A DNA stretch of 64,000 nt from Candidatus Lindowbacteria bacterium RIFCSPLOWO2_12_FULL_62_27 (GTDB lineage Bacteria; Lindowbacteria; 2-12-FULL-62-27), in NCBI GenBank assembly GCA_001784175.1, contig MFPR01000028.1, positions 101,955 to 165,954 of the forward strand, given 5' to 3'. The translations under genes and the position numbers were made by a program. This document shows, one piece after another, positions 32,096 through 51,491 of the stretch; the first letter of the stretch is position 1; each line of letters opens with the position of its first letter. The notes under the pieces were generated by a model, which searched no databases, was not told the DNA's origin, and saw nothing but the letters and a program-made list of their open reading frames with translations.

Positions 32096-32124
32096 ATAAA
32101 TGCCGCCTTTGGTCGTTTTTCCGG
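32096..32124 (-). promoter_or_regulatory. CCGGAA-N16-CATTTAT motif upstream of the vWA gene
   Basis: CCGGAA aaacgaccaaaggcgg CATTTAT. Confidence 0.7.
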
Positions 32125-32140
32125 CTTTCGGCGGCTATTC

Positions 32141-33157
32141 TCAGCTGACGTGAAATATCCGGTCCGTCCACCCCCGGCCGTTTTGTTCCGCGCAGTGCCA
32201 GGCCGACTCGTTGTTCATCCAGCACCACTTTTGCTCGTCCTTCCTGTAATACCAGTCGCGATCCTGCAGGTAGTAAATCTGCCGGCCCCGGCGCTCGAGA
32301 ATGTGACAAATCAGGTTGTCGTGATGGTGTTCCTCGTCGATATCGCTCCGCAGAAACTGCCCCATGGTCGAGTACAGTTCGTTCAATTTTCGCAGGCCCG
32401 ACTCGATTTCAGGGTCTATGGCTTTGACGTTCAACCCCAGCCGCGCCGCTTCGCGCGCCGTGATCGGATACGAATGGGAAGGATAGGCCGAATTGAGTTC
32501 CCGGCTGATTCGCTCCGCTTTCTCACCGTCGGACATGTGATAGCTCAACAGTTCCTTGCAGATGCGGATCGACAGCGAGCTGGCCCGATCCACGGCGCCG
32601 ATCACCAGCGGATGGATGTACTTGTACACCTCCGGAAACGGATTGCCGTTCGGGTGCTCGTTCCACAGCCTGATGATCCGCGACATTTCGTCGTGGCTGA
32701 CGGATACGGGATCCTTGTCCGAGTCCGTCGGCGAGAGCGGGTGGCGGAGCGACACGTCGACGGCCGTGAGAAACGAGCCGGGTCCCATGTGAATCTCGTC
32801 GCACCCGAGCGCCAGCATCGTCGCCGCCGAGGCGCATTCGAACGGCGCGAACAGAATCACGCGTTTGTAGTAATTCCGGAGAAAGTGAATGAATCGGAGC
32901 GCCTCGTGCCCGCTGCCGCCGTCCGACTTGACGGACAGCCCAATGGTGTCGGCGTGGGCCGCTCGATCCACCACGTGCGCCAGCGCGTCAACATCGCTGT
33001 GCCCGATTTCACAGTTGGACGAATGCCAGAACGCAATCACGGGATAGCCCTGGATTTCCTCGAGCGCCTCCAGAATGGGTTGCGTCTGCTCCGTCAACAC
33101 CGGGGACTTCTTCGGCGCCGCATGGGACGCCCCGCGTTCGGCGGTTTTCTTGTTCAT
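32141..33157 (-). CDS. SDH-family ClpP-fold serine proteinase
   Basis: SDGG, CASAATMLALGCDEIHMGP, YPSHSYPI; AGGAGG RBS. Confidence 0.85.
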   Translation of the reverse strand: MNKKTAERGASHAAPKKSPVLTEQTQPILEALEEIQGYPVIAFWHSSNCEIGHSDVDALAHVVDRAAHADTIGLSVKSDGGSGHEALRFIHFLRNYYKRVILFAPFECASAATMLALGCDEIHMGPGSFLTAVDVSLRHPLSPTDSDKDPVSVSHDEMSRIIRLWNEHPNGNPFPEVYKYIHPLVIGAVDRASSLSIRICKELLSYHMSDGEKAERISRELNSAYPSHSYPITAREAARLGLNVKAIDPEIESGLRKLNELYSTMGQFLRSDIDEEHHHDNLICHILERRGRQIYYLQDRDWYYRKDEQKWCWMNNESAWHCAEQNGRGWTDRIFHVS

Positions 33158-33274
33158 TTTTTCTCCTCCTTGTGGATTTTGGGCGGCTCGACGCCGCGAA
33201 GGTCCGTCTGCATAAACGGCCCGATTCCCTTTCCATATTGTGTTTTCAAAGATCCCATCGCTGCTCCAACCTGA

Positions 33275-33303
33275 ATAAATGACGCCATCCGCAAATATTC
33301 CGG
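33275..33303 (-). promoter_or_regulatory. CCGGAA-N16-CATTTAT motif upstream of the Clp-fold protease
   Basis: CCGGAA tatttgcggatggcgt CATTTAT. Confidence 0.7.
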
Positions 33304-33402
33304 AGGGACGCACAACATTTTCAACCGAAGGCCGCCCTTCCGCCGCCGCATATACTGAAATGGCCCTCCCTCTCACACTGGATCGCCCGGTGGATGTGAG
33401 GA

Positions 33403-33918
33403 TCATGTCGAGAACATCCGGGCGGCGTTGAAGGCGGCGACGGTGTTGAGGCCGCGGTAGGCTTCGACGATCATGGATCGGCCGCCGCAGTCCAGATGCT
33501 CTCCGGCGATCTCGCCGAAGCGCCGGTTGGAGACCTGAATCTGGCGCGCCGTCGCCCGCACCCCGTAGAGCCGCGCTTCGGCGGGATCCGAGATGAACAT
33601 GCCCGTGTGGAATGGCGATTGGAGTTTGTGGGCGCGGACAAATTGATCGGCATGGCACCAGATGCAGACGCAAATTTTCTCCCGCAAGTCCGGAACCAGC
33701 CGCTTGTCGACGGCGAAATCACCCATCCGGTAGTCGAACAGCCCATCGGGCGAGCCGTGTCCCAGCAGGATGACGCGCGCGTGACGGGCCATGGCGGCCC
33801 GCAGAGCCGTTTCTGTCAGCGCATCGGCTTGTCGGGCGACCATCCAGTTTCGCCCCGCGTAGATGCCCGCGAGAAATTCAGTGGAGGGATCGCCCGGATG
33901 GACCACCAGTGTCTTCAT
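33403..33918 (-). CDS. Hypothetical protein (MKTLVVHPGDPSTEFL...)
   Basis: LLGHGSPDGLF, CIWCHAD, TGMFIS segments look conserved; function not known to me. Confidence 0.7.
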   Translation of the reverse strand: MKTLVVHPGDPSTEFLAGIYAGRNWMVARQADALTETALRAAMARHARVILLGHGSPDGLFDYRMGDFAVDKRLVPDLREKICVCIWCHADQFVRAHKLQSPFHTGMFISDPAEARLYGVRATARQIQVSNRRFGEIAGEHLDCGGRSMIVEAYRGLNTVAAFNAARMFST

Positions 33919-33925
33919 ACCCCAT

Positions 33926-33954
33926 ATAAATGCCGCCCCCGGCCAAATTTCCGG
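33926..33954 (-). promoter_or_regulatory. CCGGAA-N16-CATTTAT motif, 7 nt before the ATG
   Basis: CCGGAA atttggccgggggcgg CATTTAT atggggt ATG. Confidence 0.7.
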
Positions 33955-34061
33955 GACGGCCAAAAGATCCGAAGTGGCAATCTTGCAATATCCGTTGCCG
34001 GCATTCTGAATTTGACTTGCATCTTCTGCCGACCCTGTGCTTGAATCTCATGGGGGGGGAG

Positions 34062-34391
34062 ATGGATATTGAGAAGCTTTCTTTGGATGAGTTGCACGAC
34101 CTCAACCGGCGAGTCGTCCGGCGGATCCGGTATCTGAACAGCCTCAAAACCGGGCGTGAGCTTGAGAAATTCGAGATCGGCGACCGCGTCTGTTTTCACC
34201 CGGACGGCAAACACATGGAGGGAGTCGTGGTTCGCGTCAACCGCAAGACCCTCGGCGTGCGGACGGACAGCGGCCACGAGTGGAGAGTCCACCCGGGCGC
34301 GGCCACAAAGGTCTCTTCCTCCACCACGCCGCCTTTCCCCACACGGATCGGGGAAATCGAGATGCCCCCTGCTGGATTTTCCGAGAACTGA
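34062..34391 (+). CDS. Hypothetical protein, helix plus SH3-like barrel
   Basis: FEIGDRVCF...GVVVRVNRKTLGV...WRVHP; RBS present. Confidence 0.65.
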   Translation: MDIEKLSLDELHDLNRRVVRRIRYLNSLKTGRELEKFEIGDRVCFHPDGKHMEGVVVRVNRKTLGVRTDSGHEWRVHPGAATKVSSSTTPPFPTRIGEIEMPPAGFSEN

Positions 34392-34441
34392 CACCAGCCA
34401 TGACGGTTTATACATTGCGTGGAAGGAGAGAGGAAAGGCTT

Positions 34442-36259
34442 ATGGAGAAACTATCGGCGGGTTTGTCGGAGAAAGAGATCCGGCGTGTGCTGACGGGGTC
34501 GCTGACCGTATTGGGCAGATCGAAACTCGATCTGCTCTTCGCAAAACTCGGTCCCGAAACCGGTCGATCCCTTCGGCGAATCCTCCATTCGTCCAGGCAA
34601 AATCGCGAGTTGCGCCGCAGTCCCGACAAGATCCGGCAGGAATGGACGCGGGCGTGGGAGGAATGGGACGATCGATTCTCTGCCGCCGGCGATGAGCAAG
34701 GGCCATACGTGTCCCAGGACGCCGACTGGGAGCAACCCTACTTCGACCACGAATCTCTGATAAGTGACTTGGAACCGATTGCGGCAAAGATGGGGAAACT
34801 TCTGCCTCGGGTGTTCGATGAGGGTCTTGATCCGGAATTCAGTTTCGCCGAGGCGGTCAAAAAGAGCGTTGAGGATTTCTCGTCCAGCCTTCCGGAGTGG
34901 CTGAATCCTTTCGAAACGGACGGATTCGGGTTGGGTCCTCAAGCGACGGCCTGCCTTCTGGATTGGGAGCGGCGAGCCGACCGCCCGGCCTTTCAGCTCA
35001 TCGACGATCTTCGGCGGCTGGAGGCCGACATCGGGAATTTTTATCTGGACGAAGGCGCGGTCGTCCGGTTTGTCCGCTCCCTGTCCACGGAGGACAAGAA
35101 AGAAATCCAGCGCGGAATGCGGTCGAACCGTCAGGAGGCTCACTGGCGCAAGGCTCTGGACAATGCGCGCTCCACCTGGTTTCGCATCTACAAGGAACTG
35201 TCCCGCGGCCACGACCGCGCGGGCTATCTGGAAAACTGCGAGGCTAAAATTGATCAGGATTGGACGTTGGCCCTGCCTGTGATTCGCAATCTGCAAAGCA
35301 GGAAGGATCATTCGAAAGTCGTGGAGGTATGCGGGAGGGCGTTGCGCTCAGTATTGGGATCTTGGGATGCAAAGACATGGGATCCGAAAGAAAAACTGAT
35401 CGGCCTTTGGGTCGGCCGCGCCGCCGACGGCAAGCCGGATGCCGGAGTCATTCAGATTCTGCGCGCGTGGGAAGAATCCGCGGAAGCCATGGGTCAAGCC
35501 GATCTGGCCGCGGCGATCCATCTTCAGGCGGATTTGCTTCCGGACTGGCGTAACTGGGATAAGGCTCTGTCGGCATTCCGCCGTCAGCCCATGGAGTCGT
35601 TCCCCAAGATGCGGGAATGCCTTTATGAAAAATGGCGCGTCCGGGTTACCGAAGAAAGCATGCAAAGGTGTGTCATCGACTCCATTGAACGCGCGGAAAT
35701 TTCCCAATGGATCCCTGCGCTTGCGGATGCGGCGCGGAAAAGCGAGAGTGGGTCAACGGTGTTTTCCGATCAGATCCGTCCGTGGCTGCGACAAATGGAT
35801 GAAGGCCGGGCGGCCGTGCGCATATCCATCAATGACATCGCCCGGCTCACCTTGGATCTGGATGGCGCCTCGTGGCTTCGGCGCGAGTCTCCGACGCTGG
35901 TCCGCCTGCTGGCTTACGGCTGGAACGACGATCCGGCCCTGCGCGCCTCCCGGCGCAAGTGGCTGGAACATTCAGGCGGCCCTGCGTTGATCCCCGACCT
36001 TCTCGGATTCTGGCGCCGGAATACCGAACGGCTCGTTCCTGACCCGAAAGACGCCGAATCGTCCAACTACGACCGTTGCGCGGACTGGGTTCGCGCCCTG
36101 CACGAGATTCAGCCGGCCTCCGGCCGGAAACTTCTCGCCGGCTGGTCAACCCTCCACCGCCGCCGGAAGAATCTGTGGTGTGCGCTGCGCAAGCGCGGCC
36201 TGCCCGTTCCCGGCGCGCCCACAGGAAAGATACTCCCCCGGCAAACGGCCACGGCCTGA
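34442..36259 (+). CDS. Large helical hypothetical protein
   Basis: About 605-aa ORF; no motif recognised. Confidence 0.7.
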   Translation: MEKLSAGLSEKEIRRVLTGSLTVLGRSKLDLLFAKLGPETGRSLRRILHSSRQNRELRRSPDKIRQEWTRAWEEWDDRFSAAGDEQGPYVSQDADWEQPYFDHESLISDLEPIAAKMGKLLPRVFDEGLDPEFSFAEAVKKSVEDFSSSLPEWLNPFETDGFGLGPQATACLLDWERRADRPAFQLIDDLRRLEADIGNFYLDEGAVVRFVRSLSTEDKKEIQRGMRSNRQEAHWRKALDNARSTWFRIYKELSRGHDRAGYLENCEAKIDQDWTLALPVIRNLQSRKDHSKVVEVCGRALRSVLGSWDAKTWDPKEKLIGLWVGRAADGKPDAGVIQILRAWEESAEAMGQADLAAAIHLQADLLPDWRNWDKALSAFRRQPMESFPKMRECLYEKWRVRVTEESMQRCVIDSIERAEISQWIPALADAARKSESGSTVFSDQIRPWLRQMDEGRAAVRISINDIARLTLDLDGASWLRRESPTLVRLLAYGWNDDPALRASRRKWLEHSGGPALIPDLLGFWRRNTERLVPDPKDAESSNYDRCADWVRALHEIQPASGRKLLAGWSTLHRRRKNLWCALRKRGLPVPGAPTGKILPRQTATA

Positions 36260-36265
36260 CCGACC

Positions 36266-36934
36266 ATGGCGCGCACGACAGGCCCTGTTTACATCACAAA
36301 CCTGTTGCATCTGTTTCCGGCCGATCCCGAATCCGTCATTCCGGATAAGGCGCTCAAACTTCGAGAATTTTTGGGACTCATCGTCAGAACGGCCACTGCC
36401 GTAATGGCCGAAACCGATATCGCCGCCGGCATCCGATGCAGGAGCAGGATGCATCGGAAAAAGTGTACCGGATTTCTGCTTATCCAGCGCCAGGATGTTC
36501 CCGGACCCTTCATCCACTGGGCTTGTGATCGGTGCGGCTCCGGCGGCAGAATTGAGGGATTTGCAGGATCCCCTTATGACCTCTCCCGTTTTCGTAACGG
36601 TCTGGGGAGCGGTGATGGAGGCGAACGCATACAAGTCGAGATCACACCTGACGAATACAACTCCCTCATCGCCGGAAAATTCATCCCCTACGACCCCGAT
36701 TCGGAACGAATCATTTTTTCAGCCCGCTACTACGAAGAAACGGTCCAGCTCGAAGCCGCCGCCGATGACCTCGATACCCTCGGAGACTGCGTTGCCGCCG
36801 ACGCAAATCATGAGAAAAACCGCAAACGGGCAAAACATGTACAATCCATCTTCCAAAAAATTACAGTCGCGCTCGATATGGATTCCCGCCGATCAAACGG
36901 GGACTGCCGAATCCGGTCAGGCTGGACGCACTGA
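36266..36934 (+). CDS. Hypothetical protein with putative Zn-ribbon
   Basis: C..R....C and WACDRCG motifs. Confidence 0.65.
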   Translation: MARTTGPVYITNLLHLFPADPESVIPDKALKLREFLGLIVRTATAVMAETDIAAGIRCRSRMHRKKCTGFLLIQRQDVPGPFIHWACDRCGSGGRIEGFAGSPYDLSRFRNGLGSGDGGERIQVEITPDEYNSLIAGKFIPYDPDSERIIFSARYYEETVQLEAAADDLDTLGDCVAADANHEKNRKRAKHVQSIFQKITVALDMDSRRSNGDCRIRSGWTH

Positions 36935-37265
36935 CTGTGGGAGAGGGTAACCGATGTCGTATGTGAGGGGCATGTGGCGGCCGTACGTGCCGGACCGGAA
37001 TGATCCGCTGTACGCGTGCAGCGAGCCGCATACGAAGGTGTCCTCCATGAGGGCGTAGTAGGATTTGACGGTGTTGCGGCTGACGCCCAGCGCGCTTGAC
37101 AGCGTGCTGTAATTGACGATTTGCCCGTCGTACGCGCCGGCCACCATGAGAAATTTTCCGAATGTTCCGATGATTGAAACCAGATTCTCCCGCCGGATTT
37201 CATTTTCCACGTACGTGGCCGAGTAATTTTCCAGCAGTTCAAACGCGTCCGCATCTTTGGGCGTC
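36917..37265 (-). pseudogene. Internal fragment of an AAA ATPase/DUF4143-type gene
   Basis: TYVENEIR...GQIVNYSTLSSALGVSRNTVKSYYALMEDTF; no Walker A region. Confidence 0.7.
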
Positions 37266-37320
37266 AGGCACTGTTCTGAATGTCAGGCATAGGTTTATTT
37301 GCCGGCGAGTGTGCGGAGGC

Positions 37321-37434
37321 TCACGTCAGAATGAAGCGCTCCGATTTCGACGTTGCCGCCATCCGGTCAACCAGGGACTGGGGCGTGTCGGCACGAACGA
37401 GGGCGCTGACCGCATCGGTATCGAACAGATACAT
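37321..37434 (-). pseudogene. vapC: Truncated vapC (37 codons), duplicate of 42256-42660
   Basis: MYLFDTDAVSALVR... near-identical to the intact copy until ERFI, then a stop after two unrelated codons. Confidence 0.85.
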
Positions 37435-37440
37435 AAGGGC

Positions 37441-37689
37441 CTAAAAGCGCACGGCCCGCGGCTTGTCTTTGCGGCGGCCCGACACGATCGAATTCATCGT
37501 CCGGAAAAATGGATGTCCCGGGGCCAGCCAGCCTTTCCAGTCCCGCGGCCAGCGCTCATCCTCCACCCGGATCAACTTCGCGACCGGCCGGCCGCGGCGC
37601 GTGATTAGAAATTCCTCGCGACCATACGCCACCCTTCCGAGTAGAGCCGACAACCGCTTCTTGGCCTCCGCAACGCTGATCGACACCAT
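37441..37689 (-). CDS. Phd/YefM family antitoxin, copy 1
   Basis: ISVAEAKKRLSALL...ITRRGRPVAKL. Confidence 0.9.
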   Translation of the reverse strand: MVSISVAEAKKRLSALLGRVAYGREEFLITRRGRPVAKLIRVEDERWPRDWKGWLAPGHPFFRTMNSIVSGRRKDKPRAVRF

Positions 37690-37709
37690 GGGTCACATCC
37701 TCCTTTATA

Positions 37710-37728
37710 GGTCATTATGACCATTATA
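37710..37728 (-). promoter_or_regulatory. TA promoter -10 box plus palindromic operator (repeated at 42936-42954)
   Basis: TATAAT immediately followed by GGTCAT-A-ATGACC, then AAAGGAGG RBS. Confidence 0.7.
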
Positions 37729-37753
37729 GGCCATATCCCCTGCGGCCTCAAAT

Positions 37754-37927
37754 TCATCGATCCGGCGCATTGTCCGTCCACTTCGCCTTTTTGGCGTCCA
37801 CGAGCCGCATCGGTTCGATTCCCGCCTTGAGCGCCCCCATCACGATGCGCGCGCAGGCTGTGGCGTCCGACAGCGCGTTGTGATGGTTCAGCCGGATCCG
37901 GAATCTGCGGCATACATCGGGCAACTT
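37754..37927 (-). pseudogene. 3' fragment of a DEDDh 3'-5' exonuclease
   Basis: KLPDVCRRFRIRLNHHNALSDATACARIV. Confidence 0.8.
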
Positions 37928-37933
37928 GGAGAT

Positions 37934-38296
37934 TTAAGGCCATTCGATCATTTTGCCGGAGTCCGGGTGAATGGGATTGACGCTCCAATATTTTTCAAAA
38001 TGGCGCATATATTCTTTGGCCCGGGACTGTGGGATAGTCACGAGGACCACGGCGAGGTTCGAGGCCCGAAGCCGACCGGCGGCGGAGACGGCAAATCCTC
38101 TGTCCCGCGTCAAGAGAACCTGATATTTTTCACAGGCTTTTTCGACCAATTCGCCGTTGGTGATCTCATCCCACTTCTCCTGTCTGACGGTGGAGCAGGA
38201 GATGCCTTTGGCGCTGAGCCACTCCGCCAACCGGGCCGGCATATTGTGGTCAAGCAGCCAGTTTCGGATCGGGTTGGCTGAGTCGGTCGGCTGCAT
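37934..38296 (-). CDS. DUF5615 PIN-like toxin
   Basis: WLLDHNMP, VLLTRDRGF; downstream of DUF433. Confidence 0.8.
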   Translation of the reverse strand: MQPTDSANPIRNWLLDHNMPARLAEWLSAKGISCSTVRQEKWDEITNGELVEKACEKYQVLLTRDRGFAVSAAGRLRASNLAVVLVTIPQSRAKEYMRHFEKYWSVNPIHPDSGKMIEWP

Positions 38297-38468
38297 ACTG
38301 TAGAATTTCGGGCAATGCTTCGGGCGGGAATCCTGGATAATCTTGAGCGATTTCCGAAGCCGTCATGCCCTCGGAAATGCACTGTATGACAAAACTCACG
38401 CTAAGCCGAGTCCCATTGACCCGCGGCTGACCCCCCAAAATATCCGGATTCTGAACGATCCATTTCAT
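38250..38468 (-). CDS. DUF433 antitoxin
   Basis: NPDILGGQPRVNGTRLSV...EIAQDYP. Confidence 0.88.
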   Translation of the reverse strand: MKWIVQNPDILGGQPRVNGTRLSVSFVIQCISEGMTASEIAQDYPGFPPEALPEILQYAADRLSQPDPKLAA

Positions 38469-38532
38469 GCCCACAGTATACTGCGGCCCGGCGACGGAAG
38501 CAACCAGCAGGCGCGCGACCGTGTTCATCTCG

Positions 38533-38691
38533 AAGCCGATGTTCCTTCCGAGCGATCTTCCCATTCTCCACGACCACCACCGCGCACGCGCTGTCACGGC
38601 CATGATCGGCCGTCTCAAAATCGATGGCGGCGAAGCGCGGGCGGCCGAGCTGATCCTCAGCCAGCGCGTTCATGGGATAGACAATTTTCAT
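38533..38691 (-). pseudogene. 5' fragment of a DEDDh exonuclease preceded by a helicase-motif-Ia-like peptide
   Basis: IVYPMNALAEDQLGR followed by FAAIDFETAD..DSAC. Confidence 0.7.
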
Positions 38692-38773
38692 GGGGACGGA
38701 GATTGAAATTTGACATTCCGGGCCGTGCCCCATCTTTTGTGGCCGTTCTCCGAAAGATTACACCGTGAGAATC

Positions 38774-39202
38774 TCAAATCTCACCTCCGTCCCGGAATGA
38801 ATTCGATAGACTAAGGTTTTCATCGTATTCGTTGCCGTCGACCGTTCGTCCAGCCTTAATGAACGGAAACAGATTTGTGGCGAAGACATCATCGAGATTC
38901 AGATGGTATGTCAACCCCAATAAAGCTTTTAGATAATAGTTGGTTTGCCTGGTCGGTGTATATCCTAAGATTTTACTCGGCTCGTTTCTGTATGCCTGTT
39001 TTCGTCGCATGTCGTCGGTTGACGTCCAATCTTGCAAGACAATCACAATCGGAGAATATTCATTGTGAGCAGATTTTGTGTATGGCGATACGAACTTTGA
39101 ATCCCAAAATCCATTTCGGAAATAATGAAAATTAAAATACCGCCTGTCATCGGCATTTGGGGCATTTCTTCGTTTTCTCCCAATCGCCAAAATTTTCTTC
39201 AT
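38774..39202 (-). pseudogene. Probably truncated uracil-DNA-glycosylase-like protein (AT-rich)
   Basis: IVIVLQDW, TN..L..LL, FATNLFPFIK, then abrupt loss of the pattern. Confidence 0.5.
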
Positions 39203-39301
39203 TACGGGTACGGTGACGGGTACGGTGGGGTACGGTGTCAGGCATACGTTTATTTGTTTTCCAGGCTGGACTTTCACCGGATGGTCATCATCATCAACAC
39301 G

Positions 39302-39547
39302 TCAGAGGCGACGGCGGGCGGTTTCCAGCGCCTGCAGGTGGTCGTCGTAGCTGATGGGCGCGGGGATGCCGAAGAGGGCCAGAAAATCGATGGTTTCGCT
39401 GAGGGACATGCCAAGGGTTTGGCTGAGGGTCGCGATCGAGGCGTTTCCTTCCCGGTGGGCGAGAAGCATCTTGAACTTCTGGCCATCGGTCATAAGTTCC
39501 GGCGCCATTCCGGATGTTTCCACGTCATCCTCTTCGCTATTCATCAA
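39302..39547 (-). CDS. UPF0175-like small protein (antitoxin-like)
   Basis: EGNASIATLSQTLGMSLSETIDFLALFGIP HTH-like pattern. Confidence 0.55.
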   Translation of the reverse strand: MMNSEEDDVETSGMAPELMTDGQKFKMLLAHREGNASIATLSQTLGMSLSETIDFLALFGIPAPISYDDHLQALETARRRL

Positions 39548-39553
39548 GGCGGG

Positions 39554-39751
39554 CTAGGCGACCTTGCGGGCGAGAAGTTCGCGGACGTCCGGGACCAAAT
39601 GCTTGGGGATCTCCATCACCGCCGCATCCGCTCGTGAAAACGCGATATCGTCCTCCGCGGCGGCGGCTTCGTCACTTTGCGTTTCGTAGTGGCGCAGTAC
39701 TTTCTTGACCCGTTGCTCATTCCATCCGGCCGGAAACTTATTTTTTCCCAT
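39554..39751 (-). CDS. Small probable antitoxin
   Basis: FPAGWNEQRVKKVLRHYETQSDEAAAAEDD...VPDVRELLA; coupled to the upstream toxin remnant. Confidence 0.7.
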   Translation of the reverse strand: MGKNKFPAGWNEQRVKKVLRHYETQSDEAAAAEDDIAFSRADAAVMEIPKHLVPDVRELLARKVA

Positions 39752-39929
39752 ATCTTTTTTTCATCCTCCGCCTGAACGCTTTTAACGGCGCGTCCGTCAG
39801 TTGAAACGCCGTGATCACAAAAATGTGCTCGTCGGGTTCCGGGACGTAAATCACCTTCAACAAGCGACCCGCCCCTGTCCTTGCAATAGCCACACGCGAG
39901 TCGTCCCGGGCGGTTCGGTCCTCGAATTT
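39738..39929 (-). pseudogene. 5'-truncated BrnT/DUF4258-like toxin
   Basis: EDRTARDDSRVAIARTGAGRLLKVIYVPEPDEHIFVITAF; in-frame stop at 39930-39932 directly upstream. Confidence 0.65.
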
Positions 39930-39981
39930 TCACTTGAATAATATCACATAAATCAATTCGCGGCAAAAGCGAAAAGTTTGC

Positions 39982-40331: not shown

Positions 40332-40473
40332 GTGATGTCAGTATTCACGATCTGTGAAGGATGTGACCCCTCGCGCGAACCGGAACAAGAAACTGTAATA
40401 CTGCGGTCTGCTACTGAAGACACTTTCGATCTCTGATCTTTCAAAGTTTCAACCTACGGCCCCCATATCCTTA

Positions 40474-41650: not shown

Positions 41651-42204
41651 ATCCAGTAAGACGGAAAATCCTTCTCGTCGGCGTGAGTTGCGTGGGCAAG
41701 ACCACGATCGGCCGGCTGCTTGCCGGACGGCTTGGCCTGCCGTTTTTTGACTTGGGGGAAGAAATCGAGCGGTATTTCGAAACATCCATTGAGCGGCTGC
41801 AATCCCGATTGCTGACCGGCTACTCGTACCGGAAGGAGACTGCCGTCGTCCTGAAACACATCCTTGCGGAGAACGACAACTGTGTGATCGCGCTTGCGCC
41901 AAGTGGCCTTCGGGACGCGTACCTGCGCGTGATCAAAACAGTGGACTGCGTCACCGTCGCCATTGATGACAAGCCCGAAAACATCCTGCAGAGGATCACC
42001 TTCTATGACATCGACTCCCGGCTGATCGAAAAGCGCCTGACCCCCAAGGAAAAGAATTTCTATCTAGAGGATATCAGAAAAGACATCAATTTCTTTAAAC
42101 GATCCTACCGGCGGGCCGACCTGCACGCAGACATCAACGGTCTTGACGCGCAGGCCGGCGCAGAGAAGATTGCAGGGCTGTTGGCCCCTTTTGTCGAAAG
42201 ATGA
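41647..42204 (+). CDS. Shikimate-kinase-like P-loop kinase
   Basis: LVGVSCVGKTTIGRLLAGRLGLPFFDL. Confidence 0.75.
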   Translation: MNPVRRKILLVGVSCVGKTTIGRLLAGRLGLPFFDLGEEIERYFETSIERLQSRLLTGYSYRKETAVVLKHILAENDNCVIALAPSGLRDAYLRVIKTVDCVTVAIDDKPENILQRITFYDIDSRLIEKRLTPKEKNFYLEDIRKDINFFKRSYRRADLHADINGLDAQAGAEKIAGLLAPFVER

Positions 42205-42255
42205 CCCCGGCACTTCCGGAGTGTCAAAGGTATTTTTGCCTGGAAAGGGGAAGGC

Positions 42256-42660
42256 TCAGGTCAACCAATTTTCCGTTTTGAGTCCTGAAATGCGGGAGAA
42301 ATGCCGGATGTTGCCGGTCACGAGAGTCAGGCGATGGAGGACGGCGGTGGCGCCGATCAGGCTGTCGGCAAGTCCGATGGGGATGCCGCGGTTGTCGAGC
42401 GAAGCCATGAGATCCGCGGCCGCCACGGCGACGGTCGAATCCACCGGAAGGCTCTGCATCTGAGAGATGATTTTCCTCTCGATTTTTTCGAATATCCCAG
42501 GAGGCGCCGCTTTGCGCTGCGAGCCGCGGCGAAGTTCCAGCAACGTCACCACCGAAATGAAGCGCTCCGATTTCGACGTTGCCGCCATCCGGTCAACCAG
42601 GGACTGAGGCGTGTCGACACGAACGAGGGCGCTGACCGCATCGGTATCAAACAGATACAT
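42256..42660 (-). CDS. vapC: VapC family PIN toxin
   Basis: YLFDTD, ISVVTLLEL, DSLIGATA, LVTGNIRHFSRI. Confidence 0.92.
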   Translation of the reverse strand: MYLFDTDAVSALVRVDTPQSLVDRMAATSKSERFISVVTLLELRRGSQRKAAPPGIFEKIERKIISQMQSLPVDSTVAVAAADLMASLDNRGIPIGLADSLIGATAVLHRLTLVTGNIRHFSRISGLKTENWLT

Positions 42661-43153
42661 GAGGGCCTAAAAGCGCACGGCCCGCGTCTTGTCTTTGCGG
42701 CGGCCCGACACAATCGAATTCATCGTCCGAAAAAATGGATGCCCCGATGCCAGCCAGCCTTTCCAGTCCCTCGGCCATCGCTCATCTTCCGCCCGGATCA
42801 ACTTAGCGACCGGCCGGCCGCGGCGCGTGATTAGAAATTCCTCGCGACCATACGCCACCCTTCCGAGTAGAGCCGACAACCGCTTCTTGGCCTCCGCTAC
42901 GCTGATCGACACCATGGGTCACATCCTCCTTTATAGGTCATTATGACCATTATAGGCCATATCTCCTGCGGCGTCAAATTCATCGATCCGGCGCATTGTC
43001 CGTCCACTTCGCCTTTTTGGCGTCCACGAGGCGCATCGGATCGATTCCCGCCTTGACCGCCCTCATCACAATCCGCGCGCAGGCGGTGGCGTCCGACAGC
43101 GCGTTGTGATGCTGCAGCCGGATCAGGAATCTGCGGCACACATCGGGCAACTT
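42556..43153. repeat. ~598-bp duplication, copy 2
   Basis: See 37330-37927. Confidence 0.92.
42667..42915 (-). CDS. Phd/YefM family antitoxin, copy 2
   Basis: Differs from copy 1 at three residues. Confidence 0.9.
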   Translation of the reverse strand: MVSISVAEAKKRLSALLGRVAYGREEFLITRRGRPVAKLIRAEDERWPRDWKGWLASGHPFFRTMNSIVSGRRKDKTRAVRF

Positions 43154-43250
43154 CGTCGGCCGGATGTCCCACGCGCGCCGGGCCAGTTTCACCGTGCAGA
43201 GAAACGGCTTGGCCGATGCGCGGCGGCCGGATCAGCCGATGCTCTGTTTT
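42980..43250 (-). pseudogene. Internally deleted DEDDh exonuclease
   Basis: EHRLIRPPR joined out of frame to KPFLCTVKLARR...HHNALSDA. Confidence 0.8.
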
Positions 43251-43264
43251 TGTTCTGAGCGTCA

Positions 43265-43293
43265 TTGACACCGTGGTCACAGTTGTGGATAAT
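43265..43293 (+). promoter_or_regulatory. sigma70 promoter of the relE-phd pair
   Basis: TTGACA-N17-GATAAT, 6 nt before GTG. Confidence 0.7.
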
Positions 43294-43299
43294 ATTTTT

Positions 43300-43620
43300 G
43301 TGGGACGGTCAGTGACACGCGACTATCAGATGTCGGAAGATGCGAGAGCGCATTGGAAATTCTTCGATGTATTTGCCCGGCAGATAATTCTGGATGGCGT
43401 CGATGAACAGTTGGTCGATGATGACCCTCTTCGCGAGACGTATCACAAGGGACCGCTGAAACGGCCGGTCGGAGAGGCGAATCACAAGTTGGATATCCAA
43501 AAATGGCGCATTCTTTACAGCGTTGCAGTTGAAGAAACTCGGGTTATGTCGACGATCTATGTGGTCGGTGAAAAAATTCGAGAGAAACTCCACGTCATGG
43601 GAAAGGAATATCAGACATGA
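43300..43620 (+). CDS. RelE/ParE-like toxin
   Basis: ILDGVDEQL..DP, WRILYSV, IYVVGEK; ATGA-coupled to an antitoxin. Confidence 0.75.
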   Translation: MGRSVTRDYQMSEDARAHWKFFDVFARQIILDGVDEQLVDDDPLRETYHKGPLKRPVGEANHKLDIQKWRILYSVAVEETRVMSTIYVVGEKIREKLHVMGKEYQT

Positions 43621-43913
43621 GGACAGCGACGATTCGGGACGTCAAACAAAATTTAAGCCGCTATATCCGCAACATGGACAATCGCGCCATCGTCATAACG
43701 AAAAACGGAAAGCCGTGCGCCGGGTTGGTCAGACTGGAAAACAACGACTCGGATATTGACGACTTTCTCATGGCCAATGACAGAAAACTGGTCGAACTGG
43801 TACACAAAAGCGCGCGAAGCGGATTTGTATCGAGCGCGTCGCTCAAGCGGGAACTGGCCGCCGATCTGCGCCGCGCGCAACGCAATGACCGCAAACGCCG
43901 AATGTCGCAGTAA
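43617..43913 (+). CDS. Phd/YefM family antitoxin
   Basis: TIRDVKQNLSRYI...IVITKNGKPCAGL. Confidence 0.85.
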   Translation: MRTATIRDVKQNLSRYIRNMDNRAIVITKNGKPCAGLVRLENNDSDIDDFLMANDRKLVELVHKSARSGFVSSASLKRELAADLRRAQRNDRKRRMSQ

Positions 43914-44017
43914 ACTTTTCCTGATTCACGATTTCCCCACGCGGCCCGGAACAGGAAACCGGAATTCGGCGTACTGCTGCTGATGATGGCGGTTTCGATC
44001 ATCGATCTTTCAAATTT

Positions 44018-44665
44018 TCACACACGATCATCAGGTTTCCAGTTTTGCCTCATCGGTCCGACCATCCACACAACCAATTCTACGGGTATTTCGTATAACT
44101 TGCCCGCATCTATACGCACGCGACGAAATTGCAATTTAAACTTCCGCAGATACTCCTCCCATTTTCCTCCGGCTACCTCTATCATCTTATTCGGCACTTC
44201 ATATTTCTGAAAGCATTTACGAATCTTCGCCGCATGAGAAAATCTAATATAGCCGTCATATTTTCGTGGTATGGACTTTAAAGGAAGATTTGCAATCATG
44301 ATAAAGTAGAGTTCAGGTCTCGTATTCGAAAAATTCTTCATAATGTGGAAATCATCGATTAGTTTGTCTGGGTACCTGCCTACTTGTGTTATAATGCTGC
44401 ACGCCCCCATTTGGATCAGCGACACAGCTGGTTTTGCGGGTGTCTTTTTCAGTATCCCAATATCTATCTCTTCACCATGGCCCTCGTGTTTATAATCGCG
44501 TGCCACAAAATATTTGCCTCGAAGTTTCTGGTGAATTCCCCATGCCAATCGATCTCTCAAAGGTTCTTCAACTTTTCGAGTCAAGGCTAAATATGCAAGC
44601 TCGTCTTTGCCAAACAGCCGCCTTAGCCTGACAATCTCATTCCATATAACGTCGCTAATATTCAT
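44018..44665 (-). CDS. AT-rich hypothetical protein, PD-(D/E)xK-like fold possible
   Basis: KVEEPLRDRLAW, VARDY...IDIGIL...LIQMGA; GGGAGGA RBS. Confidence 0.6.
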   Translation of the reverse strand: MNISDVIWNEIVRLRRLFGKDELAYLALTRKVEEPLRDRLAWGIHQKLRGKYFVARDYKHEGHGEEIDIGILKKTPAKPAVSLIQMGACSIITQVGRYPDKLIDDFHIMKNFSNTRPELYFIMIANLPLKSIPRKYDGYIRFSHAAKIRKCFQKYEVPNKMIEVAGGKWEEYLRKFKLQFRRVRIDAGKLYEIPVELVVWMVGPMRQNWKPDDRV

Positions 44666-44911
44666 TAAAATATCCTCCCTAATTTTTTTCGGAACGTCCC
44701 GTTCCCCTTTCAAATCTTTCAATCCGACCTTTTAAGCGTATCACAAAAATTGTTCCACCACTTTCTGTCTTCCGGACACAGAACCGGGCCTCGTCCGGGT
44801 TGCCGAGAGCGAAAAACTGAAAAAGTTCCGCGCAGGCAGTAACCCTATCCGAGTCGCTGCCCGGCACTTCAACAGTAGCATATCAAAAAAACTCATCCGC
44901 AACTTCACGTA

Positions 44912-47326
44912 CTACACAAACGCCGGGCGCGGGTCGTCTAGGAAGGCGAGGCGGCCGCCGTAGGTGGGGGGGCGCGGCGGAGATTTGGAGATCGGGCGGA
45001 TGAAGAAGACTTCCGGTGAGAGACCGAAGCCTTCGGGAAGATCAGCCTCGGGCTGGCGCTCTGGGTCGGATGACGGGGCGGCGGGACGGCGGCGTTTTTC
45101 GGACTTGCCCATCGCGCGGCGGTAGTGGTCGAGACTTGCGGCGGCGCGGCGCTTGTCGCCTTGCATCTCGTAGGCGAGGGCCAAACCGCGGTGGGGTTCA
45201 GGCTGGAGATCGTCTTCGGCGAGGGCGTTGTAGAAATGGCGGATGGCGGACTGCGGCCGGGCGGCGCGAAGATCGATTCCGCCCAGAAGAAGCTCGGTGT
45301 AGCACGATAATTTACCTCTGAAATCTCCGGCGCGGCGTTGTTTGCGCTGCAGGTCGGCGCCGGCAAGAAGCACCCAGCCGAAATCGATTTTGCGGTCGAT
45401 GCGGTCGATGCGCCGCGCCATGCTGACGGCGCGGTCGATCTCGCGTTTGGCCACAGCTTCGTTGCCGCGAAAGATCTCGATATTGGCTTTCAACAGGCGA
45501 GCCGGGATGTAGTCGGGGTTGATTTTCAGACAGCGGTCCAAATACATCTCGGACTTGGCCGAGTCGCCCATCACCAGGTTTAGAATCGCGACGCGCCGCA
45601 GGTTCGTCGGGTTGGTCGGGTTCGCCATGCAGGCTTTCGTCATCCACTCAAGCGCGGTGTCCGGGCGGTTCATCGACAGATACACATCGGCGATCCGGCG
45701 GAGGAGGTAGACGTCGTGTTGATCATTCGCGTAGTTTTCCATGAGCCATCGGAGCGCGGTCTTGTACTGTTTGCGAAGAACAAAAATGTCCGATATCCAC
45801 TGGAGCGTGTATTCGTTTTTAGGGTTGATCCTGTACGCTCTCATCAAATATTTCAATGCGTCTTTGAGATTCCCCTTCCATCGGTAGATGTACGCCAGCC
45901 GCTGGAGGGTGAAGATATTGTCAGGAGCAATATCCAGCGCACGGTGCATCCATGCCAACGCATTCTTGTCGTCGTCCATCGCCTTGTACACATATGCGAT
46001 CTGGCGCATGGTCCAGACATCGCGCGGGCGCAGAGCCTGCGCGGCCTGCAGAAATTTCAGCGCCCCATCATATTTTTTCATCACGCGGCAGGCGTTGCCC
46101 AGCCACTGGATCGGCGTTGGGTTCCAGGGATCAAGGCTCCGCGCGCGCTTAAGGACGGCCATCGCATCAACCGGCCGGCCGGCGGAAAGCAGAGCCTCTC
46201 CGAGAATGGTCAGCGCATCGGCGTCAATCGGCCGGAGGCCGGCCTGTTTTTCGGCCAGATGCAGGGTCGCCTCGTGATCGATCCGTTTCATTTCCATGAT
46301 CGCCGACCGGTAGAGGTACGGGTCGGACGATTTTTCATTTCTGGCTTTCGCCACAAACGGCCCGGTCATATCCAATTCACCGCGGCGGCGGTGGAATTTC
46401 GCGATGAAAAGATTGGCGTAGAAGGCCGTTTCTTTTGAACCGGCGAGGTCGCGCAACATCGGCAGGGGATCGGCCTCTTTGGTAACCGCTCCGGTGAGAA
46501 GGCTCATCGCGTAGCCGAGTTTCCAGCCCCGTGTAAGCACATGCCTATTGGATTTTTCGAGGAAATATTCCCGCGCTTCCTTCATCCGGGTGGACATATT
46601 CATGGCTTTAAGGAAAAGCATCATCGCGGGCGCGTAGGGTCCATGCCGGTCGAGAAATTTCCGGAGTCTCGCCGATGCGCCCGCGAGATCCATGGCGTTA
46701 AACATTTTCACAGCCAGCCTGAAATCGATATGCTCGCACAAAATCTTTGCGGCGGGGCGTGCCGCGCTCCATTTCTGGTAAAGATCGAGAAGCATGTTTC
46801 GGCGGCCGAGGGGCCGTTGAGCCAAGGCTTGAAATGCGTCCCGCGCCAGAGGGTCGGCCGACTGCGCGTCCCGTTCCTGCCGCACGATCCGGCGGTCCGT
46901 CGGAATCAGGATGGGCGGGCCGAGCCGGGCGCGTTGAACCTCGCCGAGATCAACGGCCTCGCCGCCGCGGGCGATGAGCGCGGCAATCTGGTCCCGAACG
47001 GCGGAGCTGATGGCGCCTTCGTACCGGCAATTCACTTTTCGAAATGTTCGGCGCAGCATGGGCCAGCGGTTCCAGCATTGGACGGCGAACGGCCGGACGA
47101 GGCTGGATTCGGCGGAGGACACGAGGACATCGCGAGTGGCGGCGGAATCGAGGTCGAAACTGATTCCCGCGCACCAGAGGATGGGATCCCCGGGCAGAAT
47201 GTCGGATGATTCTCCCAGGACGGCAAAAAATGTCTCACTATTTTTCCCGCGCCGCGCCGACCAGATTTTCCCGGCGGCGAATCGGCCCGTTCCCAGCCCC
47301 AATAACATCAATAACAGCAGCATCAC
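44912..47326 (-). CDS. Large tetratricopeptide repeat protein with hydrophobic N-terminus
   Basis: Many 34-aa repeats (A..L.P......LG/IA); GTG start with GAAAGG RBS. Confidence 0.85.
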   Translation of the reverse strand: MMLLLLMLLGLGTGRFAAGKIWSARRGKNSETFFAVLGESSDILPGDPILWCAGISFDLDSAATRDVLVSSAESSLVRPFAVQCWNRWPMLRRTFRKVNCRYEGAISSAVRDQIAALIARGGEAVDLGEVQRARLGPPILIPTDRRIVRQERDAQSADPLARDAFQALAQRPLGRRNMLLDLYQKWSAARPAAKILCEHIDFRLAVKMFNAMDLAGASARLRKFLDRHGPYAPAMMLFLKAMNMSTRMKEAREYFLEKSNRHVLTRGWKLGYAMSLLTGAVTKEADPLPMLRDLAGSKETAFYANLFIAKFHRRRGELDMTGPFVAKARNEKSSDPYLYRSAIMEMKRIDHEATLHLAEKQAGLRPIDADALTILGEALLSAGRPVDAMAVLKRARSLDPWNPTPIQWLGNACRVMKKYDGALKFLQAAQALRPRDVWTMRQIAYVYKAMDDDKNALAWMHRALDIAPDNIFTLQRLAYIYRWKGNLKDALKYLMRAYRINPKNEYTLQWISDIFVLRKQYKTALRWLMENYANDQHDVYLLRRIADVYLSMNRPDTALEWMTKACMANPTNPTNLRRVAILNLVMGDSAKSEMYLDRCLKINPDYIPARLLKANIEIFRGNEAVAKREIDRAVSMARRIDRIDRKIDFGWVLLAGADLQRKQRRAGDFRGKLSCYTELLLGGIDLRAARPQSAIRHFYNALAEDDLQPEPHRGLALAYEMQGDKRRAAASLDHYRRAMGKSEKRRRPAAPSSDPERQPEADLPEGFGLSPEVFFIRPISKSPPRPPTYGGRLAFLDDPRPAFV

Positions 47327-47370
47327 ATCCTGCCTTTCACTCCGGCGCCCTACGCCTCATCGCATCTCAT

Positions 47371-47399
47371 ATAAATGCGGTCATGCCGGATTATTCCGG
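47371..47399 (-). promoter_or_regulatory. CCGGAA-N16-CATTTAT motif upstream of the TPR gene
   Basis: CCGGAA taatccggcatgaccg CATTTAT, overlapping the stop codon of the sigma-like gene. Confidence 0.7.
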
Positions 47400-48655
47400 C
47401 TGCGGACATGTTCGTGGCATTTGATCAGAACGATCCGCAAAATCTTTTCGAGGTAACGCATGCCGGTCAGAGAAATATCGAGGCTTTTTTGAATAGTCGC
47501 GACGATCTGTTTGAATTTGGCCGACGCATTTTCCAGATGTTTCGCCACCTGCGTGTCGCTCTTGCCGATCATCTGGGCGATATCGAGATTCGTCATTGCT
47601 CTTTCATCGCGCGGATCTGCGGCGCCGCCGGGCCGACGTTTCAATTCGCCGGTCGCGGGGTCGCTCATGGCGGTCAGCACGGTCAGCTGCATCGGCGTAA
47701 ATGCGGTCCCGACGTCGATCATCCGTTCGACGAACTCTTCAACCTCCCCCGTGTCCGCTTCTTCCGGCGCATCGGAATCGGACTCCGGTTCCGCGAGACG
47801 CAGTTTCCGTCCGCCCTTGCGTCTGAGACCCCGACGGCTCTCGACATCCACGTTACCCTCGACATCCGCGCCACGGTCGCCATCGTCGGTCTCATGGGAT
47901 CGGCCAAGATCGACCTGCTTGCGCGGAACGAAACCGAGGACAATCGAAAACGTGTTGGAGATATCAGAAACGGCCATGGCAAGGGGCGAGGGGTTCATTT
48001 GTGTCTTCTCGTATCCCTCGCTGAATTTAAAACTGACTTTCACGGCACGCACAGCTTTTTGGGGCGGAAACCGGTCGCCGCGCCATTTTTGCAGGTCGAC
48101 CCACTCTGATATATCGTGAAGCAGGAAACGCAGAATGACCCGATCGGGCGCGTTCCAGCCGGTACGTTTCCGGCGGCGCGGCAGGTAGTGGTCTTTCATT
48201 TGGGTATCCCTGAATTCGGCGCCGACCATGACGTATGTTCTGGTTTTCAGCGCAGTCCGGACATTGTCGAAGACGCGGTATTTCTCCTGCAGATGCTGTT
48301 CGATGTGCCGGGTGACGTCATTGTAAATGATTTTGTTGAGCTGGAACGCGAAACTCTCGGCAGGCGTTAGATGGCTAAATTCGGGTCTGTCGGGCCGCTT
48401 GTTTCTCTTTTTGTACAGCCGGTCGAGAATATCGTCCACGATTTTCTCGATATCGAAGACCGACGTGGCGACGACCTTGCCGGGCGTCTTCGACAATCGC
48501 CAGCCACCCGTCTTCGACAATCGCCGGCGGATTATTCCTTCGATCACCTGTCGAAGACTCTCCAAGTCTTGAGGAGATATTCGGTCGGCAAAATACGCCT
48601 CTAACCACTCGACCCTTTGATCCATCGCAGACGGCTTGGCCACCTTCGTTTTCAC
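47381..48655 (-). CDS. Atypical ECF-like sigma factor (sigma2 and sigma4 with a long insertion)
   Basis: sigma2-like DIEKIVDDILDRLYKK...FAFQLNKIIYNDVTRHI; sigma4-like FTPMQLTVL...MTNLDIAQMIGKSDTQVAKHLENASAKF. Confidence 0.6.
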   Translation of the reverse strand: MKTKVAKPSAMDQRVEWLEAYFADRISPQDLESLRQVIEGIIRRRLSKTGGWRLSKTPGKVVATSVFDIEKIVDDILDRLYKKRNKRPDRPEFSHLTPAESFAFQLNKIIYNDVTRHIEQHLQEKYRVFDNVRTALKTRTYVMVGAEFRDTQMKDHYLPRRRKRTGWNAPDRVILRFLLHDISEWVDLQKWRGDRFPPQKAVRAVKVSFKFSEGYEKTQMNPSPLAMAVSDISNTFSIVLGFVPRKQVDLGRSHETDDGDRGADVEGNVDVESRRGLRRKGGRKLRLAEPESDSDAPEEADTGEVEEFVERMIDVGTAFTPMQLTVLTAMSDPATGELKRRPGGAADPRDERAMTNLDIAQMIGKSDTQVAKHLENASAKFKQIVATIQKSLDISLTGMRYLEKILRIVLIKCHEHVRSRNNPA

Positions 48656-48729
48656 GCGGGCAGTTTCCTTTAGCGCTCCAGGAAAATCAACAGAGTTTCA
48701 AACCTGCCCGGAATTTATATGACCGCGAC

Positions 48730-48752
48730 CCCGGAAGAAATCGAAATTCGGC
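48730..48752 (+). repeat. 23-bp direct repeat (second copy 49344-49366) carrying the CCGGAA box
   Basis: CCCGGAAGAAATCGAAATTCGGC occurs twice, followed by TGTTTCAT and CATTTTAT respectively. Confidence 0.85.
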
Positions 48753-48796
48753 TGTTTCATCGAGCAGGGCCAAAAATTCCGGGCGGGTAAGACACT

Positions 48797-49180
48797 ATGA
48801 CAGGAGAAGGGAAGAATCGAATCGAGGATTTTACAGGCTATATCGTCACGATCATTTTGCGAAGCAAGAGCGATCCGTCTGATTTCAGGTTGGAAACGAT
48901 CCAAATTCCCGGCTTGGAAGTCAAAGACCGGGCGATTGAGAAATTAATGGAAGAATTCGGTGATCAGGATGTGGAACTATTTGATACCGAAGTGGTCAGA
49001 TTTCACACCAGGTGTTTGGTCACCCCGTTGCCCAATGAAAAGAGTCTGAGATCCTCCAAGGTAACCAGTCAGACTATTGTCAAAGAGATCCAGCCCTTTT
49101 CCAAGGACAGCGACATTACTTATGACGCAATCCTGGACCGAATCGTGGAGGATATGACGCGGTGGGAACTGGGGAGGTAG
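48797..49180 (+). CDS. Hypothetical acidic protein divergent from the sigma-like gene
   Basis: 127-aa ORF, AT-richer. Confidence 0.6.
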   Translation: MTGEGKNRIEDFTGYIVTIILRSKSDPSDFRLETIQIPGLEVKDRAIEKLMEEFGDQDVELFDTEVVRFHTRCLVTPLPNEKSLRSSKVTSQTIVKEIQPFSKDSDITYDAILDRIVEDMTRWELGR

Positions 49181-49233
49181 ATGCAAACGGGAGCAGAAAA
49201 TGCTGCGTAGGATTCAGGGGGTCGATGGGTATT

Positions 49234-49304
49234 CGTCATTCCCGCGGGAATCCAGGGCTTTCCCCAGAGAACCAGACTGGATGCCCGCTTTCGCGGGCAT
49301 GACG
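49234..49304. repeat. REP-like inverted pair (GTCATTCCCGCG..GGAATCCA type)
   Basis: CGTCATTCCCGCGGGAATCCAG ... CTGGATGCCCGCTTTCGCGGGCATGACG. Confidence 0.7.
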
Positions 49305-49344
49305 ACCCAAAAAAATACCGGTAAATCCGAATCGGCCTCCAGAC

Positions 49345-49374
49345 CCGGAAGAAATCGAAATTCGGCCATTTTAT
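49345..49374 (+). promoter_or_regulatory. CCGGAA-N16-CATTTTAT motif variant
   Basis: Same spacing; upstream of the 49413 ORF. Confidence 0.55.
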
Positions 49375-49412
49375 AGACCAGGTGGCAAAAGAGAACGATG
49401 GAGGTGGGGGCG

Positions 49413-49631
49413 ATGCGGAAGGATGCGAACGACGGGATGTTTTTTGTGATCGACCGGAATTCCATGTTGGGCGAATGCCGATTCCTAAGGGGTCTGGAAC
49501 CCGGACCCGGTCCGGTGTCCCGGTTCGACCTGCAGGATGCGTCCCGGATCTACCGGGAGATGACCGGGACGGATTTGGACATACAGGCGACCGGGGAAAT
49601 TCTGCTTCGACGCGGGTGGGATGACGAATGA
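49413..49631 (+). CDS. Small hypothetical protein
   Basis: GGAGGTG RBS; ATGA-coupled to the next ORF. Confidence 0.5.
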   Translation: MRKDANDGMFFVIDRNSMLGECRFLRGLEPGPGPVSRFDLQDASRIYREMTGTDLDIQATGEILLRRGWDDE

Positions 49632-49879
49632 TGGTCCTGGTGTGTCTCGTCATCGGATTTCTCATCGGCTGGTTTTCAGGATTTTCCGCCGGGCAGGAGG
49701 AGACGCGCAGGCGGTTCCAGGCGTGGTTGCAGAGCCAAACTCAGGGACCGCCGGCCGAGGAGGCTCGCCGGGTGCTTAAAGAAATGGAAAGGGCGTACCG
49801 GGTGTTTGCCAATTACGGGGAGCGCGAGCGGCAGAAACAGTTGCGGGAACTCTGGTACGAGGAGCACAAGGATGGGTAG
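49628..49879 (+). CDS. Small membrane-anchored hypothetical protein
   Basis: N-terminal hydrophobic helix then charged helix. Confidence 0.55.
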   Translation: MMVLVCLVIGFLIGWFSGFSAGQEETRRRFQAWLQSQTQGPPAEEARRVLKEMERAYRVFANYGERERQKQLRELWYEEHKDG

Positions 49880-49923
49880 CAACGTTCGCTCCTTCAGGCG
49901 GCGAGATATTTTTTCGGCCAGAG

Positions 49924-49952
49924 GCGGAATTTGGCCCGGAACCGGTATTAAT
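49924..49952 (+). promoter_or_regulatory. GCGGAA-N16-TATTAAT motif variant
   Basis: Same spacing; about 50 nt upstream of the envelope operon. Confidence 0.55.
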
Positions 49953-50873: not shown

Positions 50874-50886
50874 AGGGGTGGTGAAT

Positions 50887-51483: not shown

Positions 51484-51491
51484 GGCATGCC

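Follow-up and report, generated by a model that had tools for sequence, protein, structure and literature searches.

What reads the sequence CCGGAA-N16-CATTTAT? The question is raised by a stretch of 64,000 nucleotides (nt) from Candidatus Lindowbacteria bacterium RIFCSPLOWO2_12_FULL_62_27 (contig MFPR01000028.1, positions 101,955 to 165,954; hereafter the window), which contains an island bearing several copies of this motif. An earlier note on the window took the motif to be a promoter and proposed that a sigma-like gene of the island (47381..48655), encoding a protein of 424 amino acids (aa), reads it and controls a stress/envelope module. Judged from sequence comparison, the motif is probably the promoter of a sigma factor with a long linker, released by proteolysis in the manner of the CalpL-CalpT-CalpS (CalpLTS) system of type III CRISPR, with no CRISPR genes adjacent.

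The motif occurs exactly four times in the 4.39-Mb genome, and all four copies lie within 15.3 kb of one island, on the minus strand and where the earlier note had placed them; 100 shuffles lead one to expect 0.00. The spacer is N16 only: the same two boxes set 14, 15, 17, or 18 nt apart match nowhere in the genome. The exact motif is absent from three genomes of the same family (G001, G002, and G003). The note had reasoned that a motif frequent before core genes would point elsewhere, and no exact copy was found outside the island. As it had also claimed, each copy lies on the sense strand 5′ of a gene. The distance to the next start is 58 nt for 32096..32124, preceding a TerY-like vWA gene, 117 nt for 33275..33303, preceding the gene of an SDH/ClpP-fold protease, and 7 nt for 33926..33954, preceding the ATG of a 171-aa gene whose transcript would be nearly leaderless. 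The fourth copy (47371..47399) lies over the stop codon of the 424-aa gene, covering its last 19 bases, and is oriented toward the ATG of an 804-aa partner gene 47 nt away. It is probably an internal promoter for that partner, a probable anti-sigma factor. The spacers of the four copies were said to be unrelated. They are dissimilar, yet their mean identity of 0.45 is above chance, and three of the four end in GGCG[G/T].

Since the motif was chosen post hoc, a genome-wide control was run for the effect of looking elsewhere. Copy number alone is common: when the genome is cut into 172 tiles of 22.5 kb, 48 contain at least four copies of some dyad of 6 + 7 bases. From 1,240,439 dyads with at least four copies in the genome, 16 (representing 7 loci) have dissimilar spacers and lie entirely within 20 kb. 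The six loci apart from the island all fall inside open frames of 1139-22287 codons and are therefore protein repeats, so that the island motif is the only survivor not of the coding-repeat type. A statistic based on dyads of 5 + 5 bases did not set the island apart from tiles taken at random (median -7.9 vs -8.0), and the confinement test was used instead.

What, then, is the 424-aa protein? Its gene, on the minus strand, has an intact frame, and the protein ends in a weak sigma4-type helix-turn-helix (from residue 354) after a long linker; residues 349-400 give a generic helix-turn-helix match (HTH_24, E 0.01). The N-terminal part has no match to PF04542 (sigma2) at E<=5. Its closest paralog, encoded on contig C35 of the same genome (21% identity, Z about 14) and likewise followed by a TPR gene, matches PF04542 at E 0.83, and a counterpart in genome G097 matches PF04545 at E 5.4e-6. 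Large protein collections returned only the protein itself or its own-genome paralog, and no homolog was found in 60 other genomes. A fold predicted from the single sequence was unusable (predicted local distance difference test, pLDDT, 34), and identity with HetZ or PatU found no support from any NCBIfam match. Extracytoplasmic function (ECF) sigma factors are about 200 aa long, with a short linker between sigma2 and sigma4. At 424 aa, and 347-442 aa among its counterparts, the protein is much larger; the exact motif, with its two boxes at one fixed spacing, has the form of an ECF promoter. Since the protein's own sigma signal is weak, its assignment rests on position and context, and these suggest a divergent member of the sigma-70 family with a long insert between the two ends that would read DNA.

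The context begins with the partner (44912..47326, minus strand), in which a MazF-like (CalpT-like) N-terminal domain is followed by an alanine site and an array of TPRs. A profile of the partner domain (A3) retrieves three PemK/MazF toxins (PF02452) at E 2e-5 to 4e-4; the PDB holds no direct match for the domain, and its fold model (pLDDT 43) has none at E<=0.001. The alanine site, L203-A204-V205 (nt 46706-46723), occupies an alignment column after the MazF-like domain in which 9 of 9 partners have such a site, reading xAA in eight and LAV in the window. No CHAT match was found in the partner. The earlier note had counted this TPR protein as ordinary cargo of the module, a view that does not survive the identification of its N-terminal domain. 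As the partner is a probable anti-sigma factor with a MazF-like domain, the closest model is therefore CalpT/CalpS and not an envelope-stress ECF system.

The same domain led to related loci. Beyond the pair on C35, it located two more in the same genome, on contigs C41 and C30, giving four pairs in all, and others in all three genomes of the family and in G097; a fragment in G401 has partner and protease only. The eight upstream (sigma-like) proteins fall into groups without significant similarity to one another, those at C41 and G097 matching TIGR02937 at E 4.8e-6, below the cut-off (residues 37-300 in the case of C41). Lon-type domains that show the Ser/Lys pattern come after the partner or are fused to it at C41, C30 (two), G001, G002, G003, G097, and G401, hence beside 7 of 9 partners. 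These domains are fused in turn to TPRs, membrane segments, or a STAND NTPase. No match to SAVED was found in the five Lon-like proteins scanned from the related loci, and no Lon-type gene by the C35 pair. Among the relatives of G054, 24 of 401 genomes hold the partner domain. In 20 of these 24, the partner gene comes after a similar gene of ECF size, and all ten upstream genes tested match TIGR02937, seven of them above the cut-off.

The surroundings of these pairs vary. On C41 (18099-21852), a sigma-like gene, a MazF-like partner, and a Lon-TPR-membrane protein form a compact triad adjoining a Tad pilus cluster, and a similar triad stands by a Tad cluster in G003. The C30 island (158000-173419) comprises a sigma-like gene, a partner, two Lon-like genes, an 84-aa gene with sigma4 only, a protein with FlhA/FlhB cytoplasmic domains, and an AAA ATPase; it has four sites of a motif of its own, and phage-like genes adjoin it. 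On C35 (28000-40412), genes for ClpX-FlhA_C, FlhB-FlhA_C-DUF6745, and a protein resembling a proteasome subunit come after the pair; FlhA_C cargo is met again on C30 and in G001. In G097 (L029:8354-15140), the sigma gene precedes a partner that has a CxxC motif ahead of its MazF-like domain; the locus also encodes a 1535-aa fusion of a Lon domain with a STAND NTPase. The G054 clade looks cyanobacterial, partly from its gene content. Its partners often have a longer C-terminal part, and two of its loci run on into a gene that we take to resemble CHAT.

If each pair regulates its own island, is there a common form of promoter? On C30, an unbiased search for dyads turned up TAAAA-N15-CGTTTA; of its four copies in the genome, three are on this island, two of these being near-duplicates, and the island has a fourth, looser site besides. 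Both C30 and the window island carry an operon for exported proteins, and the 5′ regions of the two operons align without gaps, setting GCGGAA-N16-TATTAAT of the window opposite TTTAAA-N16-CGTTTAG. Each island's homologous operon carries that island's version of the motif at the same aligned position. A template derived from the two islands, [G/A]AA-N16-C[A/G]TTT[A/G], was then tested on the other loci. It occurs at the junction of sigma and partner genes in C41 and G001, 2 of the 7 other loci, against a background of 0.005 per 280 nt (P 0.0005-0.017, depending on the background), and in both the reading frame differs from that of the window copy. C35 has one template site, 5′ of the ClpX-FlhA operon behind the pair, also with CATTT. 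Repeated private motifs were found on neither the C35 nor the C41 segment, each having one well-placed template site, and the G097 locus is AT-rich and uninformative for a motif search. G001 has ten sites of GAA-N15-CCGTTTA (control 4), three on the 9.5-kb contig that carries the sigma gene and another three on a contig where related cargo is found, among it a relative of the FlhA-domain gene of C30. Over 18 aligned sites, few and not independent, the 3′ box has A as its second base in 7 of 7 from the window and C35, and G in 11 of 11 from C41, C30, and G001.

The following mechanism is proposed. RNA polymerase carrying the 424-aa protein would read the motif as a -35/-10 promoter. At rest, the MazF-like domain of the partner would bind the sigma factor. 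A signal, probably received through the TPR part, would lead to cleavage or degradation of the anti-sigma factor near its alanine site, as with CalpT. Candidate proteases are the Lon-like proteins of C41 or C30 acting in trans, the SDH protease of the island, or a host protease. The freed sigma factor would then transcribe the TerY-WD40 gene, the SDH protease gene, the 171-aa gene, and the exported-protein operon, and from the promoter in the 3′ end of its own gene it would also drive the anti-sigma factor, shutting off the response. Since no copy of the motif precedes the sigma gene, the loop would be negative only.

The claim that the island's sigma-like gene reads the motif has thus gained from the confinement of the motif, its position, the anti-sigma-like neighbor, and the sharing of one template among paralogous and orthologous loci, but the sigma identity lacks a significant profile match, and this and several other results weigh against the reading. 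Searches of Pfam, NCBIfam, PHROGs, PADLOC, and the PDB returned no significant match for the 424-aa protein. The best sigma signal, to PF08281 on a fragment, is weak (E 0.14), as is that from its Atlas neighbors, among them one cluster in which 15% of members carry Sigma70_r2. The 424-aa protein escapes detection by profiles built from the other sigma-like proteins (not listed or E 0.38), and its pairwise Z is 3.5 to the C41 protein and 3.3 to FliA. No scoring motif site lies upstream of 48655, where the sigma gene starts; such autoregulatory promoters are common among ECF factors, not universal. The island has no Lon-type open reading frame, and its partner's site reads LAV rather than LAA, which may not be a Lon site. 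The junction template is absent from five of the eight loci (C35, C30, G002, G003, and G097), and none of 17 loci in the G054 clade has it. A loose template scored in four modules does as well with N15 as with N16 (13 each), probably because runs of A permit two registers. The G001 pattern was picked after its three local sites had been seen, and since the G001 sites also use GGAA, the -35 boxes are not fully private.

Could something else read the motif? Perhaps a paralog does so in trans, most likely the C35 protein, or several paralogs together, the 424-aa gene being degenerate or sharing the job. The C35 protein is the nearest relative, and its one template site has CATTT as well, while the sigma signal of the 424-aa protein is the weakest and no Lon gene adjoins its own. 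We nevertheless think this unlikely: all four exact copies are on the window island and none on C35, one of them overlaps the stop codon of the 424-aa gene itself, as the template does at C41 and G001, and the frame of that gene is intact. A sigma factor encoded by the host is very unlikely. GGAA is a common core of ECF -35 boxes, and the host genome has six PF04542 genes, including FliA-like, SigH-like, and two ECF-like ones. But a host sigma factor should have targets in the core genome, and the lack of exact copies there argues against all of these, as does the change of motif from island to island.

Alternatively, the motif may be no sigma target. The lack of a sigma2 match, the generic helix-turn-helix, and a size twice that of an ECF factor would suit an activator or repressor that binds both boxes. 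Against this stand the asymmetry of the site, its fixed gap of 16 nt, an AT-rich 3′ box that in one case ends 7 nt 5′ of a start codon, and the fact that the same partner domain elsewhere follows recognizable sigma factors; we regard such a regulator as quite unlikely. Or perhaps the motif has no role as a promoter, its copies being relics of duplication or recombination sites. Their spacers are more alike than chance would have it, 48730/49344 and two of the C30 sites are near-duplicates, and the cargo contains larger duplications. Yet the identity is concentrated in the two boxes, every copy faces a downstream gene, another genus has the template at the equivalent functional position, and no recombinase was found among 31 open reading frames scanned on the island. 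Relics are therefore highly improbable. A sigma factor held by the partner and released by proteolysis accounts best, in our estimation, for these observations.

How close is this to known systems? CalpT has a MazF-like domain and is cut at 202-LAAA or VLRHVA/ST, and CalpS binds polymerase once CalpT has been cut; the accessible parts of these reports give no target promoter for CalpS (10.1101/2024.05.08.593097, 10.1101/2021.12.06.471393). Set against CalpLTS as described there, the loci are alike in that the neighbor of the sigma-like gene encodes a protein whose N-terminal domain is MazF-like and which has, near residue 200, alanines that may form a cleavage site; 7 of 9 related partners also have a Lon-type protease beside them. 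The loci differ in that SAVED is found in 0 of 5 Lon-like proteins, the window island has no Lon and no cas gene was seen on it, the sigma-like proteins are of 347-442 aa, and the window partner ends in TPRs. In the CASP-sigma/Csx30/Csx29 system (type III-E), as far as the available text goes, a protease also releases the sigma factor, which has three motif matches in its own locus (PMC10028731). The window island likewise has motif copies within its own locus, and proteolytic release is here proposed, but the 424-aa protein has no match to NF041236, the TPR protein none to CHAT, and there is no Cas7-11. A third comparison is genomic island 6 of Streptomyces coelicolor, whose ECF factor SCO3450 has an island-confined regulon containing anti-sigma genes (10.1101/247056). 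It resembles the reading proposed here in the island-encoded sigma factor, the confinement of its regulon, and the presence of an anti-sigma gene within it. It differs in its metabolic cargo and in being one island, with no re-coded sister islands mentioned in the accessible text, and it comes with expression data. Three further reports, in the parts available, mention CalpT only as CRISPR-associated (PMC11229360, 10.1101/2025.11.14.688446, 10.1101/2023.06.23.546230). Neither a module of MazF-like anti-sigma factor, Lon protease, and sigma factor outside CRISPR nor the motif was found in the literature searched, which comprised the main text of freely accessible papers.

The window locus is a member of neither CalpLTS nor CASP-sigma, though its proposed working is that of CalpT/CalpS. 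What it adds is a predicted promoter, the apparent re-coding of that promoter between islands, and a putative internal feedback site. A wider view may be ventured, one that we are somewhat more inclined to doubt than to accept. The lineage may carry mobile, CRISPR-free switches of protease, anti-sigma factor, and sigma factor, four per genome here, each with a long-linker sigma factor, a MazF-fold anti-sigma factor, and its own promoter dialect for an island regulon. Cargo operons would move between islands, their promoters being re-coded in place to the new sigma factor, and the promoter buried in the 3′ end would provide negative feedback. A sigma factor held by a CalpT-type inhibitor would then, for the first time, have a promoter consensus, and the switches would represent the general module from which CalpLTS was recruited.

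An inhibitor of the CalpT-related type can thus be linked here to a promoter, to targets, and to a feedback site, all of them predicted. The four paralogous modules, with their differing boxes, let the divergence of sigma specificity be tested on natural variants and may also provide orthogonal pairs of sigma factor and promoter. The motif also marks genes without known function (FlhA cytoplasmic-domain fusions, TerY-WD40, exported proteins) as putative outputs of one response. The label of stress/envelope module given to the regulon is a guess, candidate roles being defense and envelope stress.

Of the minus-strand genes behind the motif, the 171-aa protein (33403..33918) matched no known family in family searches. 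The SDH-family ClpP-fold serine protease (32141..33157, 338 aa) is supported by PF01972 (E 2.7e-8) and NF047768 (E 1e-11). The TerY-like vWA domain and WD40 propeller (30689..32037) are in two frames, split near 31545, and match TerY of PADLOC in two pieces (E 2e-65 and 6e-21); directly 3′ of the WD40 gene, a domain scan identified a DUF4236 protein (30364..30687, minus strand). Divergent from the sigma-like gene, on the plus strand, are three small genes of no known family (48797..49879; 127, 77, and 83 aa) and the three-gene exported-protein operon (50004..52388), which is 43-53% identical to that of the C30 island. It encodes a 289-aa protein with a weak FlgT_C match, a 198-aa protein from 50887 (probably a lipoprotein), and a 298-aa protein from 51492; a scan of the collected genome contigs found no relatives of the operon. 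The 31 open reading frames scanned include no cas gene, the two cas1 genes of the genome being on other contigs.

Between the two parts of the island lies toxin-antitoxin and unknown cargo (34400..44900), lower in GC (55.6%) and with no exact copy of the motif. The earlier note was right in assigning it ordinary sigma70 promoters: those at 42977(-), 43265(+), and 37751(-) match 11, 11, and 10 of 12 positions. The cargo contains duplicated Phd/PIN toxin-antitoxin blocks, 83-95% identical (37330-37900, 39985-40213, and 42556-43230), and a fragment (40800-41144) matching the C-terminal TPRs of the 804-aa partner (40% over about 63 aa).

The note had listed five further, inexact sites, and three of them find no support when scored genome-wide on a matrix built from the four exact copies or inspected in place. 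Those at 48731 (score 6.4) and 33998 (8.7) are near background, and the N17 site at 5328-5357 is followed by no convincing gene on its own strand. GCGGAA-N16-TATTAAT (49924..49952, plus strand, 51 nt 5′ of the exported-protein operon) ranks only 123 and is rescued by its position, in gapless alignment with the C30 motif before the homologous operon. CCGGAA-N16-CATTTTA (49345..49373, plus strand, 24 nt 5′ of the 77-aa gene) is plausible but, at rank 165, not significant alone; it lies within a 39-nt direct repeat, 87% identical, whose copies are at 48730 and 49344. Between the divergent 424-aa and 127-aa genes, a 26-nt inverted repeat (48691-48799) has CCGGAATTT in both arms, possibly an operator or a pair of half-sites. 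Elsewhere in the genome, repetitive open frames of 22287 codons on C2 (around 49700-87700) and 6121 codons on C40 (around 113600-122900) probably encode giant surface proteins.

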